A DNA stretch of 64,000 nt, taken from IMG/VR virus record IMGVR_UViG_3300008113_000144, positions 28,981 to 92,980 of that record. One strand, 5' to 3'. Made by a program: the position numbers and the translations under genes. This document shows positions 7,980 to 38,956 of this stretch, in pieces. Numbering within the stretch: the stretch's first letter is position 1; every line of letters begins with the position of its first letter. Source of the DNA: a virus. Under the pieces are notes generated by a model. It made no database searches. It worked only from the letters and a program-made list of their open reading frames with translations, and was not told the origin of the DNA.

Positions 7980-8079
7980 GGGTCTCGGGGGTGGTGGGGG
8001 GCGGTGGTGCCCCCCGATGTCGTAATTATAGCGGATCGGGGGTGGCTGTCGAGGGTCGGCAGCCAGTTCCCGAAGTGTC

Positions 8080-8244
8080 CTAGTGGCGGTCGGAGATGTT
8101 CCAGGTGGTGGTAGGAACGGGGGTGAGCTTACCAGCTCGGATCGCCTGCCGCTGCTCGTGCTCACGCTGGAGGGTCGCCATGTAGGCTGCCATCGCCATC
8201 TGGCAGGCGGGGTCGTTCTTGGCGAATTCGTTGGTGATGAACAT
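8080..8244 (-). CDS. Early hypothetical protein (54 aa)
   Basis: MFITNEFAKNDPACQMAMAAY...WNISDRH*; own TATAAT promoter at 8269-8274. Confidence 0.7.
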   Translation of the reverse strand: MFITNEFAKNDPACQMAMAAYMATLQREHEQRQAIRAGKLTPVPTTTWNISDRH

Positions 8245-8279
8245 GGGGTGTCGGTTGCTGACTCTGTAATTATAACGGG

Positions 8280-8456
8280 TCAGGGGAGCTGGCAGCTGCC
8301 AGGGAGGACACTGTTGTAAGTGTCACAGCGGCGCTCGGTGGCGGTGTTGACTGCCTGGACAGTATCGGCAGCGAACCCGATGGCTGCCCCACCCACGGTG
8401 GCGATGGGAGCGTAGAAGGCAGCACCGAGGGCGAGCAGGGCGATGGTCTTGAGCAT
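8280..8456 (-). CDS. Small membrane/secreted peptide (58 aa)
   Basis: MLKTIALLALGAAFYAPIATVGG...; own TATACT promoter at 8480-8485. Confidence 0.65.
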   Translation of the reverse strand: MLKTIALLALGAAFYAPIATVGGAAIGFAADTVQAVNTATERRCDTYNSVLPGSCQLP

Positions 8457-8523
8457 GGGTGGGGGTGTCGCTGGTGATCAGTATAGCATGGGGGAGGGCA
8501 CCGCTGTGGGTGCCCGTGGGTGC

Positions 8524-8778
8524 TCAGGGAGTAGGATCGAAACCGTCGAAGATTTCCTTTACAATGTCTTCGTGTGTTTGCTGGTTGAGTATACCAGAGA
8601 CGGCGATCTCTTCTGCCCATTCCCAATCCTCAGTGCCACCAGTGAGTACATCAAGGGGGAAGATGTGGGGGTGGATTGTGTTGAGAAGATCCTCGATCTT
8701 ACCCAGCTCAGTGTAGAGATCGGTGGGGATCTCCCATGCTTCGTCGATCTGAACCGTGTCGGTGAAAGCGTAGCTCAT
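8524..8778 (-). CDS. Acidic early hypothetical protein (84 aa)
   Basis: MSYAFTDTVQIDEAWEIP..., promoter 8803-8808. Confidence 0.7.
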   Translation of the reverse strand: MSYAFTDTVQIDEAWEIPTDLYTELGKIEDLLNTIHPHIFPLDVLTGGTEDWEWAEEIAVSGILNQQTHEDIVKEIFDGFDPTP

Positions 8779-8790
8779 GGGGTGTCTGTG

Positions 8791-9620
8791 GTTGACTTGA
8801 TCAGTATAGGGGGCAGGTGGGGGCATTGCTGCCCCCTGGTGGACAGTGCTCAGGCTGTCACAGCTTCACGAACTGTAACCTTCTGGATCTTACGGTTTGC
8901 CCTGGAAGCTTTGCCCCATTCGCTACCCTTAGGCTGTGTACCGTGTACCAGGAGAGCGAACGGACCATCCTCAAAACAGGAGCGATCCTTTACATCAACC
9001 TTGAAACCTGCTGCCTTAGCATGTGCTTCGGTCATGAACACTTTACTATAGCGAGGGAACACACCTTCGTCGATGAGATAATCGAACTTGCCACCATAGC
9101 TAGCGGTGAAGTAGAAATTATCGGGAAGGTTGAGACCAACAAACAGCGGCAGATTCTTGCTGTAGCAGTAGAACTTGATCGTAGGATTGTGGCGAGCAAC
9201 CAACAACCAAGCGAGCAAATACTCTGCTGTGAAGAAGTCACCAGACTCGTGGATTCTCACTTTAGTGATAGATTTAGTGAGATTCTTCTGGAGTTCTTTG
9301 TTGATGAGATCAGCACAGTTACCCTCTTTGAGAGCTTCACGGATCGCCTGAAGGTTACGCTGTCTTGCTTCGTATACTTTCGTATACTGTACTTCACTGC
9401 TAGCAGCAAAGCAGCGAAACTCAGTCTGAGGACCATCCCAAATCTTGCGTTTGCCGTTAGAATCAATCCGAACCATTGAGAGACACTGACTAGCACCAGG
9501 GCAGGTTGTACCTGCTGGCAGGTTGAAGATCAGGGTCTGTTTGTCGAGCTTGTCGTTGCCTTTGGAGAAGCTGAGCATGGCTCTGTCGTTGTTGACTTGA
9601 TCAGTATAGGGGGCAGGTGG
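8791..9620. repeat. 30-bp perfect direct repeat (8791-8820 and 9591-9620) flanking the GP88-like gene
   Basis: GTTGACTTGATCAGTATAGGGGGCAGGTGG twice, 800 bp apart. Confidence 0.95.
8850..9578 (-). CDS. GP88-family protein
   Basis: FNLPAG.TCPGA..C, CFAA, VRIHESGDFF, FYCYSK motifs. Confidence 0.75.
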   Translation of the reverse strand: MLSFSKGNDKLDKQTLIFNLPAGTTCPGASQCLSMVRIDSNGKRKIWDGPQTEFRCFAASSEVQYTKVYEARQRNLQAIREALKEGNCADLINKELQKNLTKSITKVRIHESGDFFTAEYLLAWLLVARHNPTIKFYCYSKNLPLFVGLNLPDNFYFTASYGGKFDYLIDEGVFPRYSKVFMTEAHAKAAGFKVDVKDRSCFEDGPFALLVHGTQPKGSEWGKASRANRKIQKVTVREAVTA

Positions 9621-9665
9621 TGCCCCCTGGTGGTGCTAGTGGACAGTGCCTGAAGTGGCACAGGG

Positions 9666-9860
9666 TCAGAAGTCTACAGCCCAGTCTGGGTCATTCTTTA
9701 CAGCAACCCAGAAAAAGTTCTTGCCATTGCTAGAGCGAAGAAACACACGGTTTTCTTTGATCTGCTCAACAATACACTCTGGGTTGCTGTTCATGAGGTT
9801 AGCGAATCTGTTCTTCGCTTTGTTAGACTTAGGAGTGACAAAAGCGAGGTCAAACATCAC
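9666..9860 (-). CDS. Early hypothetical protein
   Basis: 64 aa, VTPKSNKAKNRFANLM...FFWV...DPDW. Confidence 0.75.
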   Translation of the reverse strand: MMFDLAFVTPKSNKAKNRFANLMNSNPECIVEQIKENRVFLRSSNGKNFFWVAVKNDPDWAVDF

Positions 9861-10036
9861 AAAACGTAGATACCGTGGGTGTTAAACAGTGTGGGTTGAT
9901 TCTGTTGCCAACCCGTCATCATCTGCTGGAGTTGCTGTTCAGAATAGCGATTGAGGAAAGTATACTCAAACGTGGGTTGGCTATTCTGAACACGAAGCAT
10001 GTTCTGGATTGAGTTAATCAAACGTGAACGAAGCAT
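9857..10036 (-). CDS. Early hypothetical protein (59 aa)
   Basis: MLRSRLINSIQNM...; GTGA overlap with next gene; promoter 10059-10064. Confidence 0.65.
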   Translation of the reverse strand: MLRSRLINSIQNMLRVQNSQPTFEYTFLNRYSEQQLQQMMTGWQQNQPTLFNTHGIYVL

Positions 10037-10071
10037 TGTGTTTGTTTGAACTGATGTCAGTATGGCATCAC

Positions 10072-10383
10072 TCAGGCACGCTTGGGGGTGTTAGTGGACA
10101 GTTCAGAAAGTGTCACATCACATACCCAATAGTACAGCTTCTCTGTGCTAACACTAAGGAACAGCAGAAACTGTTTGGTATACTTTAGGAGGGTTTCTCG
10201 CCCACCATTGTTATACCAATCGCTGACACGGTTAGCAACCCAAACCGTGACGCCAACGATAACACCAGCGATCGTGGCGATGGTATAAAGAATCTGTTGG
10301 ATGGTCTCGTTGTTAGCAACCTCATCCATCAGTTCATTATACTTTTCGATGATGGGGTTGTTGAAAAGAATGGTGGCGTTCAT
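10072..10383 (-). CDS. Membrane protein
   Basis: Hydrophobic ILYTIATIAGVIVGVTVWV segment; start probably ATG 10383. Confidence 0.65.
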   Translation of the reverse strand: MNATILFNNPIIEKYNELMDEVANNETIQQILYTIATIAGVIVGVTVWVANRVSDWYNNGGRETLLKYTKQFLLFLSVSTEKLYYWVCDVTLSELSTNTPKRA

Positions 10384-10431
10384 TGTTGTAGAGAATTGAA
10401 CAGCAATGGTCGATCTCTCAACCACGAACAC

Positions 10432-10526
10432 ACCATAGCACCCCCAGCACCCCAGGTCAAGCGGTAGTGGACACTAGCCAAACTGGCACACACCCCCTTG
10501 ACAAACAATAAAATACCCCCTAGATT
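10432..10526. promoter_or_regulatory. Divergent sigma70 promoters sharing one palindromic box
   Basis: Minus: TTGACC(10460-10455)-17-TATGGT; plus: TTGACA(10498-10503)-17-TAGATT; box 10468-10489 between them. Confidence 0.65.
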
Positions 10527-10590
10527 ACATCTAGAGGGTTATATGTTAACAAATTACGATTTGTTTGACATATAATCTATATGTGTTAAC

Positions 10591-10719
10591 TTATTCTTGT
10601 GTAGTATAGTCTATATCTACTACTATACTATAGTCATCATACTCTAATTCTTTATTCTTTATATCTTCTTCTTTCATTTCTTGAATAATATATTCTTCAA
10701 ATGTTATTGTATTAGCCAT
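10591..10719 (-). CDS. Small acidic protein (42 aa)
   Basis: MANTITFEEYIIQEMKEEDIKNKELEYDDY... Confidence 0.45.
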   Translation of the reverse strand: MANTITFEEYIIQEMKEEDIKNKELEYDDYSIVVDIDYTTQE

Positions 10720-10755
10720 AAGAATAAAGATTAAAGTTTAATTATTATAGTTTAT

Positions 10756-10797
10756 AAAAAGTGAGAAATCCTATTTTTTAAGATTTCTCACTTTTTT
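10756..10797. terminator. Long inverted repeat, possible bidirectional terminator
   Basis: AAAAAGTGAGAAATC / GATTTCTCACTTTTT 15-bp arms with T runs on both strands. Confidence 0.6.
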
Positions 10798-10803
10798 AGA
10801 TTT

Positions 10804-10977
10804 TTAACTTTCTAGCAATTCAGGATAATGATCAGCCACCTCAGTCATCAATTCCTCTTCAGTGTAATCATTGAAGCATTGAACTAGCATGTCATAAGCA
10901 TACATTTCCAGCGTCTTCATGTCCATGTTCTCTAGGACTTGCTGGGCGTAGGCATCAATCAGTTCAGCTTTGTTCAT
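10804..10977 (-). CDS. Acidic early hypothetical protein
   Basis: MNKAELIDAYAQQVLENMDMKTL...YPELLES. Confidence 0.7.
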   Translation of the reverse strand: MNKAELIDAYAQQVLENMDMKTLEMYAYDMLVQCFNDYTEEELMTEVADHYPELLES

Positions 10978-10996
10978 GACAGTTGTGGTGGTGGAT

Positions 10997-11164
10997 TCAA
11001 ACATCATAGCACAGGTAGGATGCCATCTCATCCTCGTAAGAGTCAACCTCATCATCAGTCAACCAAGGCATGGTCAACACAAAATTGAAGTGGTCAACCA
11101 TCCAAGCATTGAGTGTCATGTGTTCATCATGACGGCTGATAATGTTGGTGTTGAAGTAATCCAT
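10997..11164 (-). CDS. Early hypothetical protein (55 aa)
   Basis: MDYFNTNIISRHDEH...; promoter TTGACA(11216-11211)-17-TATTCT. Confidence 0.65.
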   Translation of the reverse strand: MDYFNTNIISRHDEHMTLNAWMVDHFNFVLTMPWLTDDEVDSYEDEMASYLCYDV

Positions 11165-11234
11165 GTGGATTTCTCAGGAACAAATTAAGAATAACATGGG
11201 TGGGGGCTGGTGTCAAGCCCCCTGTGACACTTAA

Positions 11235-11414
11235 TCAGATGGCACTGGTGCCCTTGCTCACCCACAGGGCAAGCCTCATGGTGCTAGCCTTGCTCACCTG
11301 CTCCTTAGTACGACCAGCTGCCATGGCGGCAGTCCGAAGGGCAGGGCGACCAGTATCAGTCTGGCTGGCGGTCAGCACGTTACGGGCGGCTTGGAGCAGT
11401 TGCTGTTGGGTCAT
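11235..11414 (-). CDS. Early hypothetical protein (SKAST-motif paralog 2, 59 aa)
   Basis: MTQQQLLQAAR...SKASTMRLALWVSK; promoter -10 at 11461-11466. Confidence 0.7.
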   Translation of the reverse strand: MTQQQLLQAARNVLTASQTDTGRPALRTAAMAAGRTKEQVSKASTMRLALWVSKGTSAI

Positions 11415-11565
11415 GATCCTCAGGGATAGTGTTTGCTCGGGGTGTTCCCCCGATGAACATAGTATGGCACCCACCAGAGCCCCCTACAAGCCCCTCTGTG
11501 CCACTTCTGAAACTGTCTAGGTGTCACACCACCAGGCACATGATCCTGTACGTTTACAAGGTAAT

Positions 11566-11589
11566 AAAAAAGGGGGCTCAATGCCCCCC
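11566..11589 (-). terminator. Rho-independent terminator
   Basis: GGGGGC-ATTGA-GCCCCC followed by T6. Confidence 0.8.
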
Positions 11590-11596
11590 AATATTA

Positions 11597-11764
11597 CTAT
11601 TCCCAATCACCATACTCATCGTAGTCTTTGAATTTAGCTTGTCGTTTTTGACGAGTTGAATATCGTTTGGCATTCTGGACTTCGTATCCATAATCCTCAT
11701 ATTCGTCTTCAAAGATATCCACAGTGTTGAAAGACTCTGTGTACTTACGATTGTTTTTTGCCAT
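11597..11764 (-). CDS. Small charged protein (55 aa)
   Basis: MAKNNRKYTESF...DYDEYGDWE*; AAGGAG SD and CTAAATA late-like motif upstream. Confidence 0.65.
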   Translation of the reverse strand: MAKNNRKYTESFNTVDIFEDEYEDYGYEVQNAKRYSTRQKRQAKFKDYDEYGDWE

Positions 11765-11814
11765 TTTCTAACAGTTTTTGCTCCTTATTAGGGGTAATTG
11801 TTGTTATTTAGTGT

Positions 11815-12039
11815 TCAAACGGCGACAATTTGAAGGGTTTGATCCTCTTTGATCGCCCGATTGATGAATCGACCCACCGATTGGTTGGATTCAATCACTT
11901 TCTCCAGCGAATTTACGAAATTAGCGTCATTCGTGGTGTAGTTATAGGTTTTGTTGCTGCCCTTAAAGGTAATAGCAACGGCAGTGCCTTCCACGTTGAT
12001 GTCGCTAATGGCGGTCGAATCAAGATTTACAAAGTTCAT
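11815..12039 (-). CDS. KTSC-like small protein
   Basis: DSTAISDINVE...AITFKGS.KTYNY....SVGRFINR pattern. Confidence 0.6.
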   Translation of the reverse strand: MNFVNLDSTAISDINVEGTAVAITFKGSNKTYNYTTNDANFVNSLEKVIESNQSVGRFINRAIKEDQTLQIVAV

Positions 12040-12068
12040 GGTTTTACTGATAATGATTAAAATTTAAT

Positions 12069-12150
12069 TCTGAGATTTTTGAAAAATCTAGATTTCTCAT
12101 TTTTTGAGATTTCTAGATTTTTGAGATTTTTGGAAATCCCTCAAATCTCA
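12069..12150. repeat. Tandem/inverted AGATTT(T/C) repeat tract
   Basis: Multiple GAGATTT/TAGATTT copies plus inverted AAATCT copies. Confidence 0.75.
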
Positions 12151-12446
12151 TGTACACAGTATAGGGCATCCTGCCAGTCTTGTCAAGGGGTCTGTGCCAG
12201 TCCCTGAACTGTCCTCGGAAGGTCTCGGAGCCCCTTGGATAGTCTTAGAGGTAGACTCATGATTTTGTCAAGCCCCTGTGTGCCACTTTGAGATCTGGCA
12301 CATTTCGACTTGACTTTCGGGTGCTGGCAGGCTTAGACAACAACACCTCCGTACATTTCTATGCTTTCAGCAACATTTAACGAAACCTTTTGTCAGAGAA
12401 TCAAAACACTCAACTATGTTTTTTTAAACATTTATTAATATACCAG

Positions 12447-12480
12447 TTTTCCACAGCTTTTTCCACAACCCTGTGGAAAA
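12447..12480. promoter_or_regulatory. Cluster of three cyanobacterial-type DnaA boxes (TTTTCCACA)
   Basis: 12447-12455 (+), 12459-12467 (+), 12472-12480 (-), intergenic, next to an AT-rich tract. Confidence 0.65.
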
Positions 12481-12544
12481 CTCAAAGGTATCGTTGAGAA
12501 CATCCTAGTCATAGACTACATTCTCTCAATGCGGAACTTCTTCC

Positions 12545-12748
12545 TCATTTCCTAAAACTCCTATGGATTTTAGCAAAGTCTATTCGTTTAGCAATCATCA
12601 TATCCATATGATTTAATACATCACCTATCAGTTCAGTCATACCAGAGATAGCATAGAATACATGCTTTAGTATAGGGATGATTAACAATGGTGTACATGG
12701 AATGAAGATAAGAAAACAAATAATTCTTCCTTTCAATGTATACTTCAT
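12545..12748 (-). CDS. Hypothetical membrane protein
   Basis: Hydrophobic N-terminus; ATGA overlap. Confidence 0.6.
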   Translation of the reverse strand: MKYTLKGRIICFLIFIPCTPLLIIPILKHVFYAISGMTELIGDVLNHMDMMIAKRIDFAKIHRSFRK

Positions 12749-12996
12749 TTGTTTACCATACGAATAGCATCATCAATCATTTCATATGCTTGTTCATTAA
12801 GATAATCATATGATTCAATTTGATCTAAAACTTTAGTTACAGTATCAATAGGTAGATACTGTTCTTCAAATGTTTCTTGGTCGAAGATTGTTACATCATT
12901 CTGTGTGTAGATGAAGGCAGCCACAGGAGCATCTGGTCCTTGTTCTTTAATCAGTTGTTGGATGGACTCTTGGAGTTGTTGAAGAGTTCGTGCCAT
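12745..12996 (-). CDS. Early hypothetical protein
   Basis: LIKEQGPDAPVAAFIYT; TATACT promoter 13019-13024. Confidence 0.75.
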   Translation of the reverse strand: MARTLQQLQESIQQLIKEQGPDAPVAAFIYTQNDVTIFDQETFEEQYLPIDTVTKVLDQIESYDYLNEQAYEMIDDAIRMVNK

Positions 12997-13073
12997 GTGG
13001 GTTGTTTGAACTGTTGATAGTATAGTGGCTGCTTGGTGTGGTGTGGTGGTAGTGTGTGACAGTTATTAAAGTG

Positions 13074-13574
13074 TCATACCTTTTGAGTAGAAATCAAATT
13101 AATACCATCTACAATATGATTATACATGAACTTGGTTTGTTCTATGCTCAAATCAACAATACTAAACTCAACACTATTATTAGTTGTAGAGATATTATAC
13201 TGACAAGGCTTAGTAACAAAATTAGTAATTTTAACTGTTTGTTTTGGTTTAGATTGGATTGTTTTCTCTTTGGTGAAGATCATTGGGAAATGTTGGCGAT
13301 AATCATCAAAAATGTCCATATCCATATGAAGATCAAATTTCTTTTTAACCTTTTCAGATATGGATTCAATATGCTTATTGTTTCTGATATATGGAAAATG
13401 ATACCTACAGTATTTCGCCATTCCCCTCAGTGTATTAATTTGATCTAATGGTTTATTTTTAGTGGTTAATTCATCTAGTGTGTCAGTAATGACATTCATC
13501 CACTTAGTATTAAAATCAACAATAAATTGTGGATAATTATTTTCAATTTGTATTTGCCAGCGACAGTTGCTCAT
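13074..13574 (-). CDS. Hypothetical protein
   Basis: 166-aa ORF; stop lies in box 13056-13077. Confidence 0.65.
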   Translation of the reverse strand: MSNCRWQIQIENNYPQFIVDFNTKWMNVITDTLDELTTKNKPLDQINTLRGMAKYCRYHFPYIRNNKHIESISEKVKKKFDLHMDMDIFDDYRQHFPMIFTKEKTIQSKPKQTVKITNFVTKPCQYNISTTNNSVEFSIVDLSIEQTKFMYNHIVDGINLISTQKV

Positions 13575-13610
13575 GATTTTTCAGCCTCATAATTTTGTTT
13601 AAGTTTACTT

Positions 13611-14180
13611 TCATTCAGATGTACCTATGTTAATATCAAAGACCACAACCCATCGTGGTGTAGGAATAGGTGTAGTCCAATGGAGAATCTTTCCTGGGAA
13701 GATCATTACATCACCTTCCTTACATTGAGTAGAAGAGACAATACCATCAAACAAAGGATAAGTATTCGATGAATTGTTTGTTGGTAGGAATTTTGTTGGG
13801 TTAGGCTCTTCAAGATGTAAGAGATAGATCCCTGTGAAATCTGATTGATAATGCCGATGAGGATTACAGATTTCATGGGGATCATAATAATTCCACCAAA
13901 TCGTTTTTACATTAGATCTGACCAGTTTAACCTTATTCAGGTTAGAATCAAATTCTTTGAGCATCTGGTTAAATGGATCCCAGATAGCATCCCGTACAAA
14001 CTCTTCATGAAACAATTCAAAATTCACCAGACCACTCGTAGTAATGCCTGTACCATTGATTTCACCACGATGAGCACGTTCTTTATCCTTTTCCAGTTTA
14101 GGAAGAAGAATACGCTTGTGCTCTTCGTGGTTGGGTACAGTTTGGTAAAAGAAAAACTCTGGTGTGAATGTGTGAATCAT
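13611..14180 (-). CDS. Putative 2OG-Fe(II) oxygenase
   Basis: WWNYY...PHRH..SDFTGIY...EGDVMIFP...HWT...RWVVVFDI; HxH...H triad typical of cyanophage 2OG oxygenases. Confidence 0.8.
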   Translation of the reverse strand: MIHTFTPEFFFYQTVPNHEEHKRILLPKLEKDKERAHRGEINGTGITTSGLVNFELFHEEFVRDAIWDPFNQMLKEFDSNLNKVKLVRSNVKTIWWNYYDPHEICNPHRHYQSDFTGIYLLHLEEPNPTKFLPTNNSSNTYPLFDGIVSSTQCKEGDVMIFPGKILHWTTPIPTPRWVVVFDINIGTSE

Positions 14181-14905
14181 TGTCCTTTCTTTTGTTTGTA
14201 GTCTTGTTTCAGTTCATGCTCATTGTAGTACAAGAACACTTCATCAGGATACTGTCCAATCCATTCGATAAACTCATCGCCAATGGCAATAGCATTATCC
14301 ATTTGATTCTCTTCCATTAAATGTTGGAAGCGATCTTGCATATACAGTAGAATCTGGTCTGATTGCTCAGACACAGACTCATACTCTAGTTCTTGTTGTT
14401 TTTGTAAGTCGTGTTCGTTCATAGGTTCTCCACGGTGATACGATTTTGTAGATGATCGTAGGAGATGAATTTTTGATTGGATGGGAGAGCGTCAGCTAGT
14501 GCTCTGGCGAAGTCATTGGGGAATCGTCCATGATAACGCCAGAACAGTTCTGTTTCTCTTGTTGATAGGGATTCTTTGGGTACAGGTCTATAGGTTGTTT
14601 CTGATAATGGTATCAGTTGGATTAGTTCCTGTAAATGATCTGCTACAATATTCATTTGATGTACATGGGGTGAGGGGCGTAAACTTGAAGGAAATCAACA
14701 CATGCTTTGTAGAGTTGATACTGGTCAGGGTTTAGATCCAACCAATCAATCAGATCTTGTGATTCCCAATCAACTGTACCATCTTGATTCATGTCATACA
14801 TGACGGGAGTACCAGCATCATCAATGCTGATAGCATGTTGACCGACAACAAAGTACATGTCTTCGTGTTCCATTGTTTCAAAACCTCCAGGGTGTTCAGA
14901 TGAAT

Positions 14906-14934
14906 AGTGTAGCAGATCAGTTGGTGAGTGTCAA
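14906..14934 (-). promoter_or_regulatory. sigma70-type promoter without box
   Basis: TTGACA-17-TACACT. Confidence 0.7.
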
Positions 14935-16728
14935 GGCTTTGGGCAGACCCACCAGGATGAGGAATGTGAGTAGAATCACCACATCCCAACACTTGTTCCG
15001 CACCATGTACGGAATCGCCAAGCCATTGGCTACCATATAAATCCTGGCACCTGTTACAGTGTCATGGTACATGGTAATCCAATAGGCTGTGACGACAAGA
15101 ATACTTGAGATTATTCTTGCTTTGACATCAGGTTTCATACTCTTTGATGATGATATTCTGTTGTGATGGAAACATTTCCTGTCCCGCCATTACAAAATCA
15201 ACAAATTTCTCTACCACGTCTAGACAAGTATCATAAGATTTTGACAACATTGGTCCAGAATACCACAGTTGAAGCAGCAAATCATCTTTACAATCAATCC
15301 AAATACCAAATCGTTTGATTTGAGCGTAATACCAATGTGTATTTGGATTACCGAGAATAGATGGACGACGTTGGATTCTCAATTTCATGGTGTTGTTTCC
15401 GATGCTTGTGGGGGCTCAGGAGGGGCAGGAGGTGCTGCTGGCGTGGGTGGCAGCTGAGTTGGCGTTGGTGCCTGTTGTGGGGGCAGCTGGAGGGGTGTAG
15501 CGAGCTTTTGTTCCAGCTTCTCCTCCAGTTGAGTTAATTTCTGCTCAATAGCAGGTGGTTTCTCCTCTGGTTTGTAGTCTGGTTGTTGTTGTGCTAGTTT
15601 CCAGCCAGCAGCACCAGCACCAAAGATGCTAGCCAGTGCTGCTACAGTTGAAATGGTTGATTGAAACTTACTCATTTGTTGTCAATGATGGCTTTCAGTT
15701 CATAGATGGCGTTGCTCACAGTCGCCTCAAGATAACCATAACAATAGGGATAACCATGCTCATTTTGAATGGCAGGGTTCTTTGTCACTTTAAGAGCATC
15801 CTCAAGACCTTCCAGAATGCTTTCCAGGTGCCAGGTGGTAACTTTGGTGGTGCTCATGATGTGATGTGTGAACTGAGATCAGTCTACGCTGATCAGGTCT
15901 TCTAGCAAGTCTTCTGGGACAGTCTCGTAACTGTCCTCAAGATAAATGTCTTCGGCATTTCGTAGGATATTCTGCCGAACAGTGTAATCATCGTAGTAGT
16001 ATTCAGTTGTGTCAAAGTCAGAAAAGTAAGTCATGATTCGTGTGAATGATTACCGTTTACAAGTTCAAGTTCGTTTTGTTGATTGGGATAGACTAGCATA
16101 CAGACATCCCGCCTTGGATCATCAGGAAAGTGTCGGACACATACAGTTATATACGACTCACAAGCAAATCGTACATGACCATACATGCCTCTATAATACA
16201 CTTCTGTTCCTTCTGGCAGCATACTCGTACTCGGTGATTGGTTCGTGGTGGACACTGATTGATTCATAGTCAGGGTACATAACAGAAACAATGTATTGAG
16301 CCAAGTTATGATTAGCTGCCACTACATACACGTCAGCAGTAATTGAGCTTGGTGCTTCTTCGGGGGCATCTTGCCAAGGTAATTCTACCTCAACAAGATA
16401 TACATGCCCGTGTTTTAAACTGTTGTCGAAATCAACGATCAAATCAGACATCATACTCTTTATTCAATTCAGATGTGAGTTCAAAACGTAGTTCATCAAT
16501 CTCTTCACGAAGAAATTTTATTTCTTGTTGTAAATGAATGATTTCGCCTTGTTGGGTTTTGACAAGCTCAGCGTATTCTTTTACGAGAGCTTCTGCCTGT
16601 TCTAGACTGGTCATGTTACTTTTTAGAAGACAAATGGTATTTATTGTAGTCTAAACTACCGAGTTTTTGCTCTTGGAGTAGTGTATATTGCCCAACAACA
16701 AGAGCAATCATGGCAATAATGATTGGTT

Positions 16729-16938
16729 TCATCCCATACCTCGGGGGAATTGATGGTTACAATCAGGACACAGCCAGTAGGCAATACGATCTTCACCCAA
16801 TGGCTCAACACCAATCACACGAGAATAAAAATACGGAGCTGAATAGTTGTGTCGATACTCTTCGGGGATGGGTTTATCTACCCAGTTTGCCCCACATTCA
16901 GGACAGTTCCGCATGTGTGTGATGTCTTGGTAGTTCAT
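16729..16938 (-). CDS. Zinc-ribbon protein
   Basis: CPEC...WLCPDC. Confidence 0.7.
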   Translation of the reverse strand: MNYQDITHMRNCPECGANWVDKPIPEEYRHNYSAPYFYSRVIGVEPLGEDRIAYWLCPDCNHQFPRGMG

Positions 16939-17610
16939 TTACATAAACTCCGCCATGTAATAATCAACAGTCACCTCAAGTTCCGCAGCTTTCTCCTCAA
17001 TGGCAGCCATGAATGCGGAATCAATGTCCAGTTGATCGTGTTGCTGTTGTTCAGTCATGTTGGTCAAGTGCTTTCCAAGCATCAAATAGTTTAGCATAGA
17101 GTTCGTTTCCGTCAATCTTTGTGTGATTTTCAAGATGAACTTGGATGTGTTTGTTGAGATACTGGAGAGCCGAGATAAGATAGTTAAGCTCTCCAGAATT
17201 GAGACGTACAAAGTCTTCAGGCATCATAGCCAGCGTGACGGAGCATGGCTCGTCGGCAATCATAGGCTACCAGTTCGTTAGGATACACGCCGAGGCAGTG
17301 GCGAGATTCACGATCAATGATCTCCCACTTGCTCGTACCGATCCTAGCACGAACGATGAAGGGGTTGTCAATGCCCAGGGGATAGGGCTTCTTGGTGATG
17401 GTGGTGCTCATTGGATTTTACCCTCGCTAATGTCGTTAATGATGAAACGTAGTTTGTCGATAGTTTCTTGATCAACGTAGTTGTCGATCATCGAGTCTGT
17501 ATTGTAGCAGTCTACGAGCAATTTGGCAGCATCGTAGACGGCAGCAACAGCGTCGTCACGGGAGGTGAATTGAAAACTGCTCATGTCGAGGTTTTCTTTG
17601 GTACGAAGTT

Positions 17611-17668
17611 ATTATGGCACGACCACAGGTGCCTGTCAAGGGCAGTGTGCCAGTTTCAGGACAGTAAC
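17611..17668 (-). promoter_or_regulatory. Early promoter with upstream box
   Basis: Box 17647-17668, TTGACA-17-CATAAT. Confidence 0.8.
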
Positions 17669-20144: not shown

Positions 20145-20220
20145 TTTTTTACCTCTTTGTAAATTTTCATAGCAAGGTCCATTACACAATAGCCAAAGGC
20201 AAATCCTGCCATAATTTCAA

Positions 20221-20496: not shown

Positions 20497-20912
20497 CAGA
20501 AAGGAATTTCCTCCAGGGTGGGCACAGCAGACATTGTAGCACAGGCAGGATGCTCTTCAGTCACGGTGTCACCAGTGATAACATCAAGAATGTTCAGAAT
20601 CTCTTGACCGTTGGCACCCTTACGGAGCATGGAAATCAGAAGTTGCTTGCTCATGGTAATAAAATGATAAGGTTTACAGAATCACTCTTCAGGGAAGAGT
20701 TTCCAGATGTCAGGGCGAATGCCCAATTCCTCACAACGAACCTCATAGGCGATTCGCTGGAGGAGGCGAAGGTCCATGCCCTCGACCTCCTTGATTATAG
20801 CACGACGGATCTGGGCGTCTTGGGCAGTGTCAGTAACCATTGTGGTTCCGTTGTTGACTCACTCATTATAGGGGTGGAACCACCCCGTTGTGGGGTGGTC
20901 TTGTGTCAGTTG

Positions 20913-21377
20913 TCAGGCTGTCACAACCTCGGGCATCGGCAGCTCGTGGGTGTTGCCACTACCCCAGCCGATCCTGTAGGCTCGCCACTTGCCTTCGGTG
21001 GTGTACAGGTAAGCAAACTCCTCGCCAGTGTTGCCACTGGTGAACTCTTCAAAGTCACCGTGAGTGATCTCCAGTTCTTCGCCACGCTCAGTGTGGTAGA
21101 GGGGCTGGGGAGCACGAGTGGGAGAATACACCCAGTTGCCGTCCATGTCACGAGCGATGTCTCCATCCTCAGTACGAACCACAGACGTGATCCACAGATG
21201 GGTGGTCCGAAGCGAAGACATGCTACCGCCGTCGATCAGCTGACGGACAGCTTCACGATCTTGGTAGTGCTCAGCAAGAATACGACCGTTGTGCTCCAGG
21301 TAGCCATCATAGTGGCAGTAAACACTGATAATGCTGTTGTCAGGCAGTTGGTAGCCGATCCGAGAGCGAGTGCCCAT
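20913..21377 (-). CDS. Conserved phage hypothetical protein
   Basis: MGTRSRIG...SVYCHYDGY..HNG..L...EEFAYLY; start 21377 follows promoter. Confidence 0.8.
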   Translation of the reverse strand: MGTRSRIGYQLPDNSIISVYCHYDGYLEHNGRILAEHYQDREAVRQLIDGGSMSSLRTTHLWITSVVRTEDGDIARDMDGNWVYSPTRAPQPLYHTERGEELEITHGDFEEFTSGNTGEEFAYLYTTEGKWRAYRIGWGSGNTHELPMPEVVTA

Positions 21378-21402: not shown

Positions 21403-21460
21403 AATATAGGGCAAAAGAAAGGGGGCGTCAAGCCCCCTGTGCCACTCTGTCAGCTGTCAC
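21403..21460 (-). promoter_or_regulatory. Box + terminator hairpin with -35 in loop + -10
   Basis: Box 21439-21460; GGGGGC-TTGAC-GCCCCC-TTTCTTTT; TTGACG-17-TATATT. Confidence 0.85.
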
Positions 21461-28216: not shown

Positions 28217-28385
28217 GATCGTCAAAAGTAAAGTAATCAGTAATGGCAGACATTACAGCGTCATTGATTCGATCAATGATCACATGCTCTTCTGGATTCT
28301 CTACATGTTTGTGGGCAAGACGCCAACCACGTTGAACACCTTGCTCAATTGCCATTTCAAGAATAACATGGAACTTAGGTTTCAT
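28203..28385 (-). CDS. Hypothetical protein
   Basis: AIEQGVQRGWRLAHKHVENP. Confidence 0.7.
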   Translation of the reverse strand: MKPKFHVILEMAIEQGVQRGWRLAHKHVENPEEHVIIDRINDAVMSAITDYFTFDDHDFI

Positions 28386-28585
28386 TTAAAAGCACCACCA
28401 ATGATAGCAAAAATCAGAATAACAGCAACAATAGCAAGAAAAATTAGAGCACTAATCCACAAAGGAGACAGCACCCACACCCAAGGCCAAGTGATGTTAC
28501 CAGTGAGTTTCAGACCAATAAACAAAATGGTAAGCAAACCAGTGAAACCAATGCCACTGGAAGAGGAAGAAGAGTTGCTAGACAT
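28382..28585 (-). CDS. Small membrane protein
   Basis: SSSSGIGFTGLLTILFIGLKLTG.ITWPWVWVLSPLWI; start 28585 after promoter. Confidence 0.8.
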   Translation of the reverse strand: MSSNSSSSSSGIGFTGLLTILFIGLKLTGNITWPWVWVLSPLWISALIFLAIVAVILIFAIIGGAFK

Positions 28586-28607
28586 GTGTTTTATTTGAAC
28601 TGAAGTC

Positions 28608-28665
28608 AGTATAGACCATAAAAAAGGGGGCGTCAACCCCCCTGTGTCGGTTTCAGAACTGTCCT
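28608..28665 (-). promoter_or_regulatory. Box + terminator hairpin with -35 + -10
   Basis: Box 28644-28665; GGGGGG-TTGACG-CCCCC-T6; TTGACG-17-TATACT. Confidence 0.85.
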
Positions 28666-29123
28666 TTACCCTGCCCCACATCAAATACCCAGATGCCACG
28701 CTGAACCCACATGTTTACAACACGCTGGCGATCATCAAAGACACCCAGAATCATGTGAGTTTTGAGGATTTCATCAGCAATCTCGCCTTTGACGACGGCA
28801 TCATCACGATGATCTTTATACTTTCTCATATACAGACCATCCCATTTGAAACCAAAGGCAGTCAACCACTCTTCTGTTTGCTCACGATAGTCGTCTGATC
28901 GACCAGATACAAAGAACAAATCACAATCCATGGTTCCTTTGCTAGCATGTAGTGCTTTATACACATAATCTACTGCTAGATGAGGAACATCTTGTCCCAA
29001 TCCTTTGTTCCAAGCATCCCAATTACGGGGTTTAGTTGCTACGTATTGACGACGATGGCGAACATCACAGATGGTGCCATCGAGATCGAAAACGAAGCAC
29101 TTCTTTCGTACCACATTCGACAT
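28653..29123 (-). CDS. HAD-family polynucleotide 3'-phosphatase (PseT C-terminal domain)
   Basis: FDLDGT, VSGR, MR..KD.R.D.VVK, FDDR..VV.MW...G. Confidence 0.9.
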   Translation of the reverse strand: MSNVVRKKCFVFDLDGTICDVRHRRQYVATKPRNWDAWNKGLGQDVPHLAVDYVYKALHASKGTMDCDLFFVSGRSDDYREQTEEWLTAFGFKWDGLYMRKYKDHRDDAVVKGEIADEILKTHMILGVFDDRQRVVNMWVQRGIWVFDVGQGKGQF

Positions 29124-29574
29124 AATCAAATCCTTCTGCTACAGTTGGTTTTTCAAATTGATGATACATTCTTTTCAGAATGTCTTTAGGAATAAACTTA
29201 CCGTCACGATGATTGTTTCGTTCCAGTGCTTCCTCTAGAGTAATTTCAAAGTAAATTGCTCCTCTATGATAGTATGATGGCAGTTTATTCAGTTTTTTCT
29301 TTCGTGCTTTGGCACTAAGATTGGTCTGATCCCAGATAATATCTTTACCATTGTCGATGGCATATGGGATCAGTTTCTCCATCATCCATGTTGCTTCTTT
29401 GATATACTTATCGAACACTTCATTATACGTTTTGCCCTCTTTTTTGGCATAGTAATCAATGTAGTAGTCCGTCGAGAGAACCACAGAATTTTTCCAATAA
29501 TCCAGAGCAAGAAGTTTATCCACATAGGTAGATTTCCCGCTGGTGGGGATACCACAAAGCATTACACATTCCAT
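29065..29574 (-). CDS. Polynucleotide kinase-like P-loop protein
   Basis: GIPTSGKST Walker A, STD, WDQTNL, ERN..R. Confidence 0.85.
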   Translation of the reverse strand: MECVMLCGIPTSGKSTYVDKLLALDYWKNSVVLSTDYYIDYYAKKEGKTYNEVFDKYIKEATWMMEKLIPYAIDNGKDIIWDQTNLSAKARKKKLNKLPSYYHRGAIYFEITLEEALERNNHRDGKFIPKDILKRMYHQFEKPTVAEGFDYVECGTKEVLRFRSRWHHL

Positions 29575-30731
29575 TGAAGACCTCCGAAGAGCCAACGATT
29601 TTGGTCAATTTTAGTTTGAGTGGTGAGTGATTTGCTGATCATGTCAACGATAGTAGCACGGGATCCTTTGCCGCCTTTCATAGCATACATGATGGGGGCG
29701 TGGATTGGCAAGATTTTGGTCTGAACAAACTGGGTAGCGAAATCCTTTTTATCAGGATACATGGTGTTACCAGCATTATACATGTCTGCCATCTCACCAG
29801 CAAGGTCGTCCACTGCCATCCAGAAGGCGTTCTGGAACGCTTTGAGGCGATGGGCGTCGTCTGGTGTCAGCAACGGAATAACGTCGTCTACAGAGTCACT
29901 GAGGATGGTCTGGAGAACGTTTTTCTCTTGGTTGATCTGTTCTTTCGATTTGTGGCGAAGAACATATTCATCCGCTTTAACTTTGACCATGTGACCAGAA
30001 TCAAAGCGAAGAACAACACCTTCACCATCATCCCATTCACGAACTTGCTTTACAAACAACTCAATGTTTTGAACAGCAAGACCAGCAAGTGCTTTTACGA
30101 CAGGAATACCAGAATGTTCTGCCAGTTCAACCATATTATAATAGGGAAGATAAGTCCCACTGAAAGTATTACGGATACCAGTGAGAATCAGTTGATCTTC
30201 TGGATAATCTACAACGATACGATTTTTACGAGAACACCACTCAAAAATAGGAGTCAGTTTAGCATCAATACAACCACGAATGAAATCATAGTAATCTAAA
30301 TCATCAGCAATGAAATACTCAGCATTCATCGCTACCTCAGTAATACCTGCTTTGGTAGCAAGACGGAAACCTTCTTTGGTAGGGATCGGACGAATCATAG
30401 ACCCATCCAGTTTCTCCAGCACTACATGAGGTTCATATAGATTAATTTTATTGATTGCCGTTTCTTCACGCTCACCAGCATTGAAAAACTTGTGATACGG
30501 ACGGGAGATAAGATTGCCAGTGGCAGTATCAAAGATCAGACCACGACATTCACGACGAATTTTCATGTTGTAATGAGATCGCTCACGAATGAGAGAGAAA
30601 GTATCCTCAAATGCTACCATGTAGTTGATAACAGTATACCAATCCTTCTCCATGACCTTGAACTCAGGACGATCTTCGATGTGTGGAATCACATCGTCAA
30701 TATGTTTGATCTCAGGAAAATCGTAATTCAT
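29562..30731 (-). CDS. rnlA: RNA ligase 1 (T4 RnlA-like)
   Basis: ECRGLIF, RPYHKFFN, EKLDGS, FEW...NRIVVDY, EGVV, VKVK..EY. Confidence 0.9.
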   Translation of the reverse strand: MNYDFPEIKHIDDVIPHIEDRPEFKVMEKDWYTVINYMVAFEDTFSLIRERSHYNMKIRRECRGLIFDTATGNLISRPYHKFFNAGEREETAINKINLYEPHVVLEKLDGSMIRPIPTKEGFRLATKAGITEVAMNAEYFIADDLDYYDFIRGCIDAKLTPIFEWCSRKNRIVVDYPEDQLILTGIRNTFSGTYLPYYNMVELAEHSGIPVVKALAGLAVQNIELFVKQVREWDDGEGVVLRFDSGHMVKVKADEYVLRHKSKEQINQEKNVLQTILSDSVDDVIPLLTPDDAHRLKAFQNAFWMAVDDLAGEMADMYNAGNTMYPDKKDFATQFVQTKILPIHAPIMYAMKGGKGSRATIVDMISKSLTTQTKIDQNRWLFGGLQWNV

Positions 30732-35655: not shown

Positions 35656-35846
35656 GTTGTTCCCAGTCTCCCCGTTCTTTTTTACGGAGACTCTTAAGTT
35701 CTTTATAAAGTTTTTTAATTTCTTGATAAGCATCTTCAGGACTCATTTTGTCGGCAATTTCAAGACCAGCGATTAAACCTACTTTATCGCCAAAGCGAGC
35801 TAGTGCTCGTTCAAATTCTGTTAAGCTTTCGTACATAGGCAACCTG

Positions 35847-36686
35847 TCAGTTCATAAACGATTCTAGCACACTTTTGGGTTTTGGCTTTGGATGTTCTGG
35901 TTTCTTAACAATGATCAGCTCAGTCTTGTCATACCTCTTGGTTCCTGACATTTGATATGGAAATGTGAGATACCTAAATTCAGTCCACCCTTCATACAAG
36001 TTACGAACACTTTCGCTGTTGTCATAAGACATCACAAAGCCACCACGATGAGACTTTAGAATCCTAGCAAATTCTTCGTGATCAAATGTTTTGTGTAGCT
36101 CGCCATCCTTTCCATAATAATGACTCACAGTTTCGTAATATGGCGGATCAAGGTACATGAAATCATCTACATGCTTAGGAATAGTGTCGAAACAACTACC
36201 GTAGCTGAAGCTGAAGTTAGGATTGTAGAATTTCCTGAGCTTTTCAATGCCAACAAGACGAAACTCAGCACGAGAACGTACAGTAGAACAACCGATCTTG
36301 CCGCTGTAAGACCCTTTAATAGCAATATAAAATGCCCAAGCACGAGTAAACTTATCCTCGTGATCGAGCAGTGGCAAGAAAGATTTGTAGTGGTCACTAT
36401 CTTTTAATGGATAGTGCTTGGAAACCTCAGCAGCAATACGATCGCCGCCCTCGGTAGTCAGAATTTCCCAGAAATCAGCAAGAGAACGGAAAATATCGTA
36501 TGCTTGTACCTTGATTCCTTGGGACGCTAAAAGCATTTCTACAGAACCACCACCAAGGAAAGGAGAAACAACATAATCTACACCAGGATAAACATCCTTG
36601 ATGATGTCAATAATTTCATTCTTCATCCTGTTCTTGCCACCAGCGTAGCGATACAGGGAATGGTTGGTCACTTTAGATGGGGCCAT
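35847..36686 (-). CDS. DNA adenine methyltransferase (Dam/D12 class)
   Basis: RYAGGK, SPFLGGGSV, YLDPPY, MSYD motifs. Confidence 0.92.
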   Translation of the reverse strand: MAPSKVTNHSLYRYAGGKNRMKNEIIDIIKDVYPGVDYVVSPFLGGGSVEMLLASQGIKVQAYDIFRSLADFWEILTTEGGDRIAAEVSKHYPLKDSDHYKSFLPLLDHEDKFTRAWAFYIAIKGSYSGKIGCSTVRSRAEFRLVGIEKLRKFYNPNFSFSYGSCFDTIPKHVDDFMYLDPPYYETVSHYYGKDGELHKTFDHEEFARILKSHRGGFVMSYDNSESVRNLYEGWTEFRYLTFPYQMSGTKRYDKTELIIVKKPEHPKPKPKSVLESFMN

Positions 36687-37654
36687 GAATAGTTGTTCCG
36701 AACGATACTGTTGTAAAACTTTTCCCTATTATAACCTGGATTGATGTGGTTTGACAACTCAATGATCTCCATGTTAAACAGGGCGTAGTCCTCACGCTGG
36801 ATTTGACCGTTGAGGTAGTTGCTCCTAAACAGTCTAGCACACTGGTAGATGTCCCGTGCTAGGTCAGGATCACCGAACAAGTGCTCGGCAGCAATCGTGT
36901 TGAGGATGTCCACATAGTTGCCCTGGGTGCCGCCAGCCCGCTTGATACCAGAAGTCTTGAGGATACGAAACTCACTCAGCGAAGACATACCAATGTTACG
37001 CCACACATACTTGTCGTATTTGGTGGTGGTACGAGTGAGCCAATACTGACACAGTTCATGCTCGCTCATCGAAAGAATCTCAGCTTTCATCTTATGATTA
37101 CGCTTCACAGCGTCCTTCATAGATTTATACCAGATGTTGTATTCCATTTCGCCCATTTCATAGCGACGCTCACAGCGTTCTATAAAGTTCTTAGCAGACT
37201 GCTTTTTGTTTTCGTTAATGTTAGCGAGAACAAGCACAATATTCTCTGGACGATCCCCAGCAGTAGGATCAATATGCTCTACCTGGAAATCTAGAATGTG
37301 GTACGGACCATCGCCACTGTAGGCACAGCAACGGTCCTGATTCAAATACATCTGTGTGATCATGATGCCCCTGGCTTCTGTAGGATTAGCACCAGGAGCA
37401 CCGATAGTATCGGTAGCGGGATCGTAGTATCCAGCCAGAAGTTGCTGTCCAGACTTACGAATATCTGTCTGCTCTTCTTTAGTGAAGGTGGCATATGCTT
37501 GAGCAGCAGACTCCCAAGAAAAATCATTGATCTTTGCTTGAGCAATAATAGCTTCAGCATGACCAGTAATAAGATCTTTACGAGCGATCACACCTTCAAG
37601 TTGTTTGAAGGTGAGTAGCTGATCCTTGTAATCAATTGAACGTTTGAGAGTCAT
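36668..37654 (-). CDS. HNH-domain protein, putative endonuclease
   Basis: CAYSG...QVEHIDP...ENIVLV..NINENK. Confidence 0.7.
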   Translation of the reverse strand: MTLKRSIDYKDQLLTFKQLEGVIARKDLITGHAEAIIAQAKINDFSWESAAQAYATFTKEEQTDIRKSGQQLLAGYYDPATDTIGAPGANPTEARGIMITQMYLNQDRCCAYSGDGPYHILDFQVEHIDPTAGDRPENIVLVLANINENKKQSAKNFIERCERRYEMGEMEYNIWYKSMKDAVKRNHKMKAEILSMSEHELCQYWLTRTTTKYDKYVWRNIGMSSLSEFRILKTSGIKRAGGTQGNYVDILNTIAAEHLFGDPDLARDIYQCARLFRSNYLNGQIQREDYALFNMEIIELSNHINPGYNREKFYNSIVRNNYSWPHLK

Positions 37655-38877
37655 CGTACATCAATGGCGGGTTGACCTTTAACAAAAATGGTGTCTACGA
37701 CTTCTTCCAGACGACGCTGGGTTTTCTTGCCGTAGTTCTTGAAGACAGGCACAGTCACGAAACCAGTGGACTTTCGGTACATGGCGAAGTTTCCTGCCTC
37801 AATCTTACCACAGGCAACGTCACGGGCGTCATCCTTGTTAAGACGGATAACACGACCGATGGTTTGTGCCATTTCCACAATTGGCAGGTTACGAAGCAGA
37901 ATGGTATGAGTCAGACCGTGAACGTTGATGCCTTCAGACAAAATGCTGTAGTGGAAGATGATGAACTTACGCTCAGGATCTTGACCCCAAGCGTTGAAGG
38001 TGTCGAAGAATGTCTCACGATCGACTTTAGTTTGATTCACATAAGCACCGAACTTGCTGGTAATATGGAGAACATCAAAACCACGCTCAGCGAGCTGTGT
38101 CAGGACTTTGGTGCTAGACAGCATCTGCCACAATACTTTGCTGCTAGGAGCAGCCACAAGCACCTTCTGGGCGTTCCTAGCGTCCAGTCCGTCGATCATG
38201 TCGATGAGGGTGCTAGCGTCGTTGTCAGCAGCACTGAGACCCTTCTGGCGTTCATAATCTACTTCATGAACTTGAATAGTTGGAGGAAGAATATTGCCTT
38301 GCTCAACAAGCTCAGGAGCAGAAATGTTAGAGATAATCTGACCAAACACAATCTTGTTGTTCATGCCAGTGCCAAGCGAAGAACGACGATGCTTGGGGGT
38401 AGCAGTGAAGTAATAGTAATTGGTAGCATTACACTCAGCAACGGAACTGAAGAAATCAGTACGAGTAGCGTTGTGTGCTTCGTCGTAATAAGCCACATCA
38501 ATATTGATTTCAGACTCGTTCACACGACGAAGAGAGTTGTACGTCGTAAAGATCAGCTTATGATTATCTACAATCTCATCCCAAGCAGCAATCACATCAG
38601 GCTTGGTAGTGCTCTTGTGGTGGCTTTCGCCACTGTGAACATGAAGAACGTTAGCAAAATCAATGTGCTCAAGAAACTCACTGGACAGTTGCTCTGCCAG
38701 GAGAATACGTGGAGCACACACAACAATGGTCAATGGTCTGCTAGATTCGTTCATCCGACGAATAGCATCAAAAATCATGATGAGAGTCTTGCCAGCTCCA
38801 GTCGGAGCGATGATCTGCCCAAACTGGTGCTTTTTGAGAGCGGCAAGACTCTGCTCTTGTTGGGGGCGGAGTTTCAT
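37651..38877 (-). CDS. Superfamily II DExH helicase (ResIII-like)
   Basis: LRPQQ, PTGAGKT, DEAH, TATP, SEGINV, QTIGRVIR. Confidence 0.9.
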   Translation of the reverse strand: MKLRPQQEQSLAALKKHQFGQIIAPTGAGKTLIMIFDAIRRMNESSRPLTIVVCAPRILLAEQLSSEFLEHIDFANVLHVHSGESHHKSTTKPDVIAAWDEIVDNHKLIFTTYNSLRRVNESEINIDVAYYDEAHNATRTDFFSSVAECNATNYYYFTATPKHRRSSLGTGMNNKIVFGQIISNISAPELVEQGNILPPTIQVHEVDYERQKGLSAADNDASTLIDMIDGLDARNAQKVLVAAPSSKVLWQMLSSTKVLTQLAERGFDVLHITSKFGAYVNQTKVDRETFFDTFNAWGQDPERKFIIFHYSILSEGINVHGLTHTILLRNLPIVEMAQTIGRVIRLNKDDARDVACGKIEAGNFAMYRKSTGFVTVPVFKNYGKKTQRRLEEVVDTIFVKGQPAIDVR

Positions 38878-38899
38878 GGCAAATCAGGTCAATAAAGAT

Positions 38900-38956
38900 A
38901 GTATGTCACAAAAAAAGGGGCTCGTCAAGCCCCTGTGCCACTTACTGAACTGGCGG
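38900..38956 (-). promoter_or_regulatory. Box + terminator/-35 hairpin + -10 at the late/early boundary
   Basis: Box 38935-38956; GGGGCT-TGACG-AGCCCC-T7; TTGACG-17-CATACT. Confidence 0.85.

Follow-up and report, generated by a model that had tools for sequence, protein, structure and literature searches.

A palindromic box upstream of small-gene promoters in a freshwater T4-like cyanophage matches a site at cyanobacterial Yfr2 promoters

Repeated units in which a stem-loop is combined with an early promoter (PeSLs) are known from T4-type phages (Arbiol 2010; Comeau 2014, PMC4122927). Promoters of the NtcA type, with the site GTA-N8-TAC, have been described in cyanobacteria and cyanophages (Sullivan 2010, PMC3037559). 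A further site, CGRE1, is known from the yfr2 promoters of marine picocyanobacteria (Lambrecht 2018, PMC6191309). The yfr2 and yfr4 promoters of MED4 pulled down PMM1637, a regulator of the GntR/PlmA type, and were shifted by it in electrophoretic mobility shift assays (PMC6191309). As published, CGRE1 is 21-22 nt long and has GTTG or GTTA flanks with 13-14 nt between them; homologues of PMM1637 are found in all cyanobacteria and only in cyanobacteria (PMC6191309). Here, a repeated 22-bp box was analysed in a stretch of viral DNA of 64,000 nt, hereafter the window (positions 28,981 to 92,980 of the IMG/VR record IMGVR_UViG_3300008113_000144), and compared with these systems and with the promoters of the cyanobacterial RNA Yfr2 (Cyano-1). 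This record, a linear fragment, has 92,980 bp and a completeness of about 48%. It derives from a T4-like cyanomyovirus, the closest record being Synechococcus phage Sf-FR1 (73% amino-acid identity for the SF2 helicase). All positions given below are window positions unless another genome is named.

The box is an imperfect palindrome whose best form is GTGMCAGTT-N4-AACTGKCAC. In a preliminary description made from the sequence alone, 16 copies of the pattern GTGMCAS-N8-STGKCAC had been reported, with an 8-nt core of constant length and variable sequence. Two exact matches to this pattern were found in the window (12280 and 21439), for 0.00 expected. When up to two mismatches were allowed, 14 matches were counted, compared with 1.20 +/- 1.02 in shuffled sequences (maximum 4). 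The enrichment was thereby reproduced and the example sequences and coordinates were correct; the number of copies had to be revised. A weight matrix was made from the box sites and scanned over the full 92,980-bp contig. Three extra boxes were obtained (8060, 15916 and 28644), which gave 17 promoter-linked boxes in total, for a chance expectation of about 0.4 to 1.2 in the contig. All of them are located between 8060 and 38956 (Table 1). The same scan detected no box in the rest of the contig, and the structural part is box-free, as had been noted. Weaker matrix matches at 25403 and 37866 were taken as chance occurrences because no promoter lies downstream of them.

The spacing of the two arms was analysed with a symmetric half-site matrix. 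At the 9-4-9 spacing, 18 matches were found versus 0.4 in shuffles; at gaps of 2, 3, 5 and 6 nt, each gave 0-1 match, which is the chance level. Pooled, the 34 half-sites read G T G M C A S T T, with G3, C5 and A6 almost invariant and T8 and T9 conserved, so that the true element is 9-4-9 and not 7-8-7. The core has the constant length first described, but it is not free in sequence, as its first two letters are TT and its last two AA. In 10 of the 17 cases, the upstream open reading frame (ORF) has its stop codon in or at the box, which explains the frequent TGA in the supposedly free core.

Along the direction of transcription, the order is box, 29-33 nt, -10 hexamer, 20-26 nt and start codon. 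The -10 hexamers (e.g. TATACT, TATAAT and CATACT) are all on the minus strand. They are separated from the box by 30 nt in nine units, 31 in four, 29 in two, and 32 and 33 in one each. Two hexamers were re-assigned by eye, which alters two of these values and leaves the 29-33 nt range unaffected. If the -10 is placed at -12 to -7, the box extends from about -64 to about -43 and its centre is at about -53.5; the preliminary description had put it near -53. In about half of the units, the leader starts 6-8 nt past the -10 with AGT(T)CAAC-like words. A -35 with at least five of six positions matching, at a spacing of 16-18 nt, is carried by 9-10 units; in an independent scan, these units were the top sigma70-like sites of the region. 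Seven of the 17 promoters do not have a proper -35. None was found at 8305, 8840, 9640, 10095, 13056 and 20903, the six promoters already singled out for keeping the spacing without this element, and only a weak one at 11498. The distance between box and -10 is constant with or without a -35. In the units at 21439, 28644 and 38935, a GC hairpin carries the -35 in its loop and has a T run behind it, an arrangement that resembles a terminator. Half-sites that behave independently, a strict spacing between them and a constant distance to the -10 argue for an operator for a dimeric protein and not for a stem.

The box units resemble PeSLs in several respects. Both are repeated composites that combine a sigma70-type promoter with a stem-loop or terminator and with a short leader up to the start codon, both occur in a hyperplastic region of small genes and at module borders, and some neighbouring box units are near copies of each other. 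They differ in that PeSLs open with an AT-rich upstream region without a two-armed operator, whereas box units open with a palindromic operator. The stem-loop, which precedes the promoter in PeSLs, is present in only 3-5 of the 17 box units, where it encloses the -35; both a stem-loop terminator and a -35 are missing from seven units. NtcA promoters are similar in that a host-regulator site is reused in cyanomyovirus promoters and in that the N8 spacer is that of the first pattern; however, the arms of the box are GTGMCA and TGKCAC instead of GTA and TAC, and its centre is at about -53.5. NtcA sites are centred near -41.5. Sites of the NtcA and CRP types were rejected as candidates on account of their arm sequence and spacing.

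Related cyanophages were then scanned, as had been proposed in the preliminary description. The loose pattern was compared with a reversed control and gave 19 matches versus 2 in Syn9, 18 versus 1 in S-PM2, 19 versus 1 in S-H9-2, 19 versus 3 in P-SSM2 and 15 versus 6 in S-CAM3. With the matrix trained on the window, 12 boxes were found in Syn9 and 19 in S-PM2, compared with 1.4 and 0.6 in shuffles, at the 4-nt gap only. In these two phages, the -10 is mostly 29-32 nt from the box and the start codon is about 20-25 nt beyond. Syn9 has boxes in its small-gene region (43-53 kb of that genome), and the Syn9 box positions include 43114, 44775, 47205, 48559, 49079, 52997 and 127493. In Sf-FR1, four boxes are clustered at 51-57 kb, also in a small-gene region and with a like layout. 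The perfect box was found in at least 120 IMG/VR stretches. In 80 IMG/VR contigs with 81 perfect boxes between them, the segment 10-54 nt from each box was searched for its best -10-like hexamer, which lay at 29-31 nt in 64 of the 81 cases. Judged by these sequences, box promoters are a class common to T4-like cyanophages (Kyanoviridae), of which this phage is a further instance. The novelty that the preliminary description had left to be checked is thus not upheld: the class is also present in Syn9, S-PM2, P-SSM2, S-H9-2 and many IMG/VR contigs. Doron and co-workers reportedly described a novel regulatory element at early-gene promoters of Syn9 in 2016; we take the box to be probably the same element. 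Compared with Syn9 and S-PM2, a larger share of the box promoters of this phage retain a good -35.

The same site was found in cyanobacterial genomes. A scan of 596 Gb of prokaryote genomes (one genome per species) for the perfect box gave 105 stretches, 80 of which were listed. The total of 105 is close to a rough chance estimate of about 70, and only the cyanobacterial subset (12 of the 80 stretches listed) is informative. At 5 of 11 cyanobacterial perfect-box loci, the Cyano-1/Yfr2 RNA (RF01701, identified with Infernal) begins 42-43 nt after the box. These loci have the layout box, 31-32 nt, TATTCT or TATTTT as -10, and then the conserved GTGAGGAG of the RNA; they include promoters of Nostocales. 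RF01701 was located in 151 genomes of the cyanobacterial class and 40 upstream regions were retrieved. In four cyanobacterial genomes of 2.3-2.6 Mb, GTGCCGC-N8-GTGTCAT is present at -61 to -40 of Yfr2 and is followed by a -10 with no -35. Several larger genomes have comparably good 9-4-9 boxes at -59 to -63 of Yfr2. Altogether, the 9-4-9 box ends 37-43 nt before the start of the RF01701 model at 16 Yfr2 promoters (loci L020, L027, L036, L050, L082, L133, L135-L137, L144, L147-L149 and L151, and the weak L124 and L126). The box placed before Yfr2 matches the phage boxes both in sequence and in distance to the -10.

The CGRE1 sequence was rebuilt from the wording of the published description (PMC6191309) and from the Yfr2 upstream regions gathered here. 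In genomes of 1.6-1.9 Mb, the size of Prochlorococcus genomes, a perfect GTGACAGTT is located at -57 to -63 of Yfr2. Its partner half is upstream and the order is reversed (AACTGTCAC, 1-2 nt, GTGACAGTT); on the promoter-proximal side, only an AAC remnant is found. This everted form agrees with CGRE1 as published. CGRE1 and the phage box have the 9-bp half-site GTGACAGTT / AACTGTCAC in common, so the half-site of the box is that of an already characterised regulator, PMM1637 (PMC6191309), which is a second respect in which the element is not new. Both sites also stand upstream of promoters without a -35, and the Yfr2 promoters of Synechococcus-sized genomes and Nostocales have the 9-4-9 box of the phage at an equal distance from the -10. 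By its sequence, then, the phage box is not CGRE1 as defined but the form present at the Yfr2 promoters of other cyanobacteria. One Yfr2 promoter (L122; G091:C1:103449-103633) holds both forms: a 9-4-9 box (GTGACGGCT-N4-AACTGACAC), 4 nt, and an everted pair of the CGRE1 type that ends about 15 nt before the start of the RNA model. As both forms are found there, one half-site serves both arrangements within one promoter. In the portions of the literature consulted, CGRE1 is named in work on Yfr2, and no connection between CGRE1 and cyanophages was found.

A GntR winged-helix domain was searched for in five complete cyanomyovirus genomes and in this contig, in any frame, and none was detected. 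Each host-like genome tested encodes a protein of 328-367 aa in which an N-terminal GntR domain is the sole recognisable part. The coverage of this protein by solved structures never extended beyond the N-terminal domain.

Taken together, these data make it probable that the presumed early promoters of the phage mimic the PlmA-dependent Yfr2 promoter of the host, with the box as an upstream operator for a dimeric host factor. A dimeric host transcription factor that is present at DNA entry would bind the two 9-bp half-sites (GTGMCAGTT, 9-4-9). Once bound, it would assist initiation at the -10 by host RNA polymerase with its primary sigma factor, whether or not a -35 is present. The phage promoters would be copies of the promoter of the host Yfr2 small RNA (sRNA) gene and, because they would be such copies, the most likely binder would be the cyanobacteria-specific GntR-family protein PlmA (the PMM1637 homologue). 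With copies of an activator-dependent host promoter put ahead of its first genes, the phage could recruit the polymerase upon DNA entry. The proximal edge of the box adjoins the -35 position, which would allow contacts with region 4 of sigma or with the C-terminal domain of the alpha subunit. Protein binding, the identity of the protein as PlmA, activation and the early class of the genes are all points that we infer. The preliminary description had proposed a dimeric factor, either packaged by the phage or supplied by the host. The sequence marks of a dimeric site were recovered in the independence of the half-sites, their strict spacing and the constant distance to the -10. A host factor is favoured over a packaged one because an identical box precedes cyanobacterial Yfr2 and because neither the five complete relatives nor this contig encode a GntR domain.

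Several observations weigh against this explanation. In five host-like genomes, the loose box is not enriched (79-104 matches versus 108-125 in the reversed control); the host regulon would therefore be small. The 9-10 promoters of the 17 with a good -35 may need no activator. The regulator of the site is known from one strain only, and the evidence for its binding concerns only the everted Prochlorococcus form, in MED4. There, the order of the halves is inverted and 1-2 nt separate them (AACTGTCAC-(A)T-GTGACAGTT), whereas the phage boxes have 4 nt between the halves. Scans for the everted form gave only slight enrichment in Syn9 and none in S-PM2 or this contig, and P-SSM2, a Prochlorococcus phage, has the 7-8-7 form all the same. 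Finally, as the contig represents about 48% of the genome, a phage-encoded binder of another fold could be located elsewhere.

The latter point leads to the explanation in which the binder is specified by the phage, either as an early activator delivered with the virion or as an early or middle product that shuts the early promoters, the resemblance to Yfr2 being secondary or coincidental. Cyanomyoviruses do not have Alt, Mod, MotA and AsiA of T4 (PMC2984593), which requires another switch, and most of the small ORFs of this incomplete contig have no Pfam match. We nevertheless consider it unlikely. The box is found at an equal distance from the -10 before Yfr2 in Nostocales and in other cyanobacteria that are not known as hosts of such phages, so the site exists independently of the phage and a purely phage-specified site is improbable. 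The five complete relatives have no GntR domain, and the identical half-site is bound by a characterised host protein (PMC6191309). Another possibility is that the box is a module junction or recombination site of a mobile promoter-terminator cassette like the PeSLs, and that it is kept by copying and not by binding. This would fit the stop codons of upstream ORFs in or at the box, the near identity of some cassettes over about 60 nt (e.g. 8840 and 9640), the terminator-like hairpin around the -35 in three to five cassettes and the shuffling driven by PeSLs in other T4-type phages (PMC4122927). Some metagenome contig joints (4 of about 14) also end less than 50 nt from a box, a weak argument given the short flanks and the 90% identity threshold. 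However, copying leaves unexplained why arms and spacing are kept amid a diverged core and diverged flanks, why the distance of about 30 nt to the -10 recurs in the large majority of unrelated viral boxes from IMG/VR (64 of 81) and why the site is present at host Yfr2 promoters. As a replacement for operator function, a junction is quite improbable. A junction role is compatible with the mimicry of Yfr2 promoters and plausible as a second function, one that cannot take the place of the main function. The ends of upstream genes fall inside the box, so the box-promoter unit likely also marks junctions between small-gene modules in this secondary role.

The box could also be read as an RNA or DNA hairpin that stabilises the 3' end of the upstream transcript, terminates it or serves as a site of processing. 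Upstream genes have this inverted repeat at their 3' ends, and some copies could form a stem of 5-7 bp. The reading is very improbable, as compensatory changes are absent: complementarity is limited to 7 of the 17 boxes at arm positions 4 and 19 and again to 7 at positions 7 and 16. Several copies, such as that at 9640, pair at just 3 of 7 positions. The position of the box is fixed relative to the downstream -10 and not to the upstream stop codon, and separate GC hairpins with T runs already act as terminators. The hairpin reading was rejected for this lack of covariation between the arms.

T4-like cyanophages do not have the early and middle reprogramming proteins of T4. The identity of the box with the host Yfr2 site, together with the phages being free of GntR domains, narrows the question of the factor behind their early promoters to the binding of these promoters by PlmA. 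Whether, throughout the Kyanoviridae, the first wave of transcription would depend on host PlmA because the early promoters copy the Yfr2 sRNA promoter is a proposition for which we see the chances as even. If it holds, the onset of infection would be tied to host nitrogen, carbon and light signalling (the PII-PipX-PlmA axis), and the take-over of globally important picocyanobacteria by phages, here of freshwater ones, would be gated by a nutrient- and light-responsive host regulator. One universal factor restricted to cyanobacteria would then explain the uniform early programme of broad-host-range cyanophages across hosts. Taken alone, the window provides another instance of a promoter class found family-wide and no new type of element. 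The contributions made here are the test of spacing specificity, the distance profile across IMG/VR, the perfect phage-type box at Nostocales Yfr2 promoters, the reconstructed relation between the phage box and CGRE1, the absence of GntR domains from the phages and the freshwater origin of this one.

Table 1. Promoter-linked boxes of the window, with their -35 and -10 elements. ORF, open reading frame.
Box	Position	Strand	-35	-10 (position)	Remarks
1	8060..8081	-	TCGACA	TATAAT (8025-8030)	AGGACAC-N8-CTGGCTG; found with the weight matrix
2	8305..8326	-	none	TATAAT (8269-8274)	start codon at 8244
3	8840..8861	-	none	TATACT (8803-8808)	core holds the stop codon of the GP88-family gene (8850-9578)
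4	9640..9661	-	none	TATACT (9603-9608)	GP88-family gene downstream (start 9578)
5	10095..10116	-	none	CATACT (10059-10064)	
6	10468..10489	-	TTGACC	TATGGT (10432-10437)	
7	11224..11245	-	TTGACA	TATTCT (11188-11193)	-35 within a GC hairpin
8	11498..11519	-	TTGTAG (weak)	CATACT (11461-11466)	
9	12194..12215	-	TTGACA	TATACT (12158-12163)	AAATCTC-type repeats over about 110 nt downstream; next ORF starts at 12039
10	12280..12301	-	TTGACA	weak	exact pattern match; in tandem with box 9
11	13056..13077	-	none	TATACT (13019-13024)	
12	15916..15937	-		TAGACT (15881-15886)	new, found with the weight matrix
13	17647..17668	-	TTGACA	CATAAT (17611-17616)	distal arm degenerate; core holds the stop codon of a 581-aa ORF
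14	20903..20924	-	none	TATAAT (20865-20870)	
15	21439..21460	-	TTGACG	TATATT (21403-21408)	exact match; terminator-like hairpin 21420-21438 with the -35 in its loop, T run
16	28644..28665	-	TTGACG	TATACT (28608-28613)	new; GC hairpin with the -35 in its loop, T run
17	38935..38956	-	TTGACG	CATACT (38900-38905)	GC hairpin, T run; SF2 (UvsW-like) helicase gene downstream (start 38877)

The part of the window between 6 and 40 kb consists of minus-strand genes, mainly small ones. Metagenomes of lakes, rivers and other fresh waters from several studies contain DNA nearly identical to positions 8000-14000, as do lake metatranscriptome libraries; this indicates a freshwater phage. Its group is known largely from marine isolates. 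Contigs from RNA libraries (three metatranscriptome runs of one lake study) span the small-gene region; such contigs show neither transcript starts nor levels, and they weakly hint that the boxed region is transcribed. They have little or no cover at 17,664-19,599 and 12,340-12,823, where the DNA run continues. In metagenome contigs of related populations (7500-22000), entire small-gene modules are omitted, e.g. from 12343 to 13613 and from 14549 to 15987. Several end points of these skips are less than 50 nt upstream of a box, again with short flanks and at 90% identity. This gives only a hint of cassette-wise gain and loss of small-gene modules.

Some features of the region around the tandem boxes 9 and 10 were also recorded. 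Downstream of them, 12040-12160 is free of ORFs over about 110 nt and is made of AAATCTC / GAGATTT-type repeats with periods of 9, 17 and 25; it precedes a 74-aa ORF. The homologous box promoter of Sf-FR1 is also followed by like repeats (about 29105-29190). A structured leader is one possible role of the tract, a small RNA another. In the gap of about 250 nt upstream of box 10, TTTTCCACA occurs three times at 12418-12480 (two direct copies and one inverted), beside an AT-rich tract. On the plus strand, TTGACT accompanies box 10, together with a weak -10 placed at the mirror distance, so that the box might serve a divergent promoter too. Among the prokaryotic stretches, the sphingomonad metagenome-assembled genome DASYKV01 (Allosphingosinicella) contains many perfect 22-bp boxes, often as adjacent pairs 1 nt apart. 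This looks like an unrelated dispersed repeat that fits the pattern by chance.

Positions 6000-11600 form a GC-rich island (44-53% GC, versus about 35-40% elsewhere) that contains the majority of the box promoters without a -35 and the GP88-family gene (PF17338, E = 3.6e-41). Box 16 is situated among RNA-repair genes (26793-30731), which encode an Rnl2-type RNA ligase with an OB domain (26793-27896), a polynucleotide kinase phosphatase domain (28653-29129) and a T4 Rnl1-type ligase (29562-30731). Downstream of box 17, the SF2 helicase gene (37651-38877), a 328-aa ORF (36668-37654) that gave no Pfam match and a gene for a D12-class adenine methyltransferase (35847-36686) follow each other with overlapping ends. 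A 472-aa flavoprotein of the tryptophan-halogenase family (23356-24774; PF04820, E = 2.6e-73) is encoded amid the small genes. Five clustered tRNA genes are located on the minus strand at 62997-63884.

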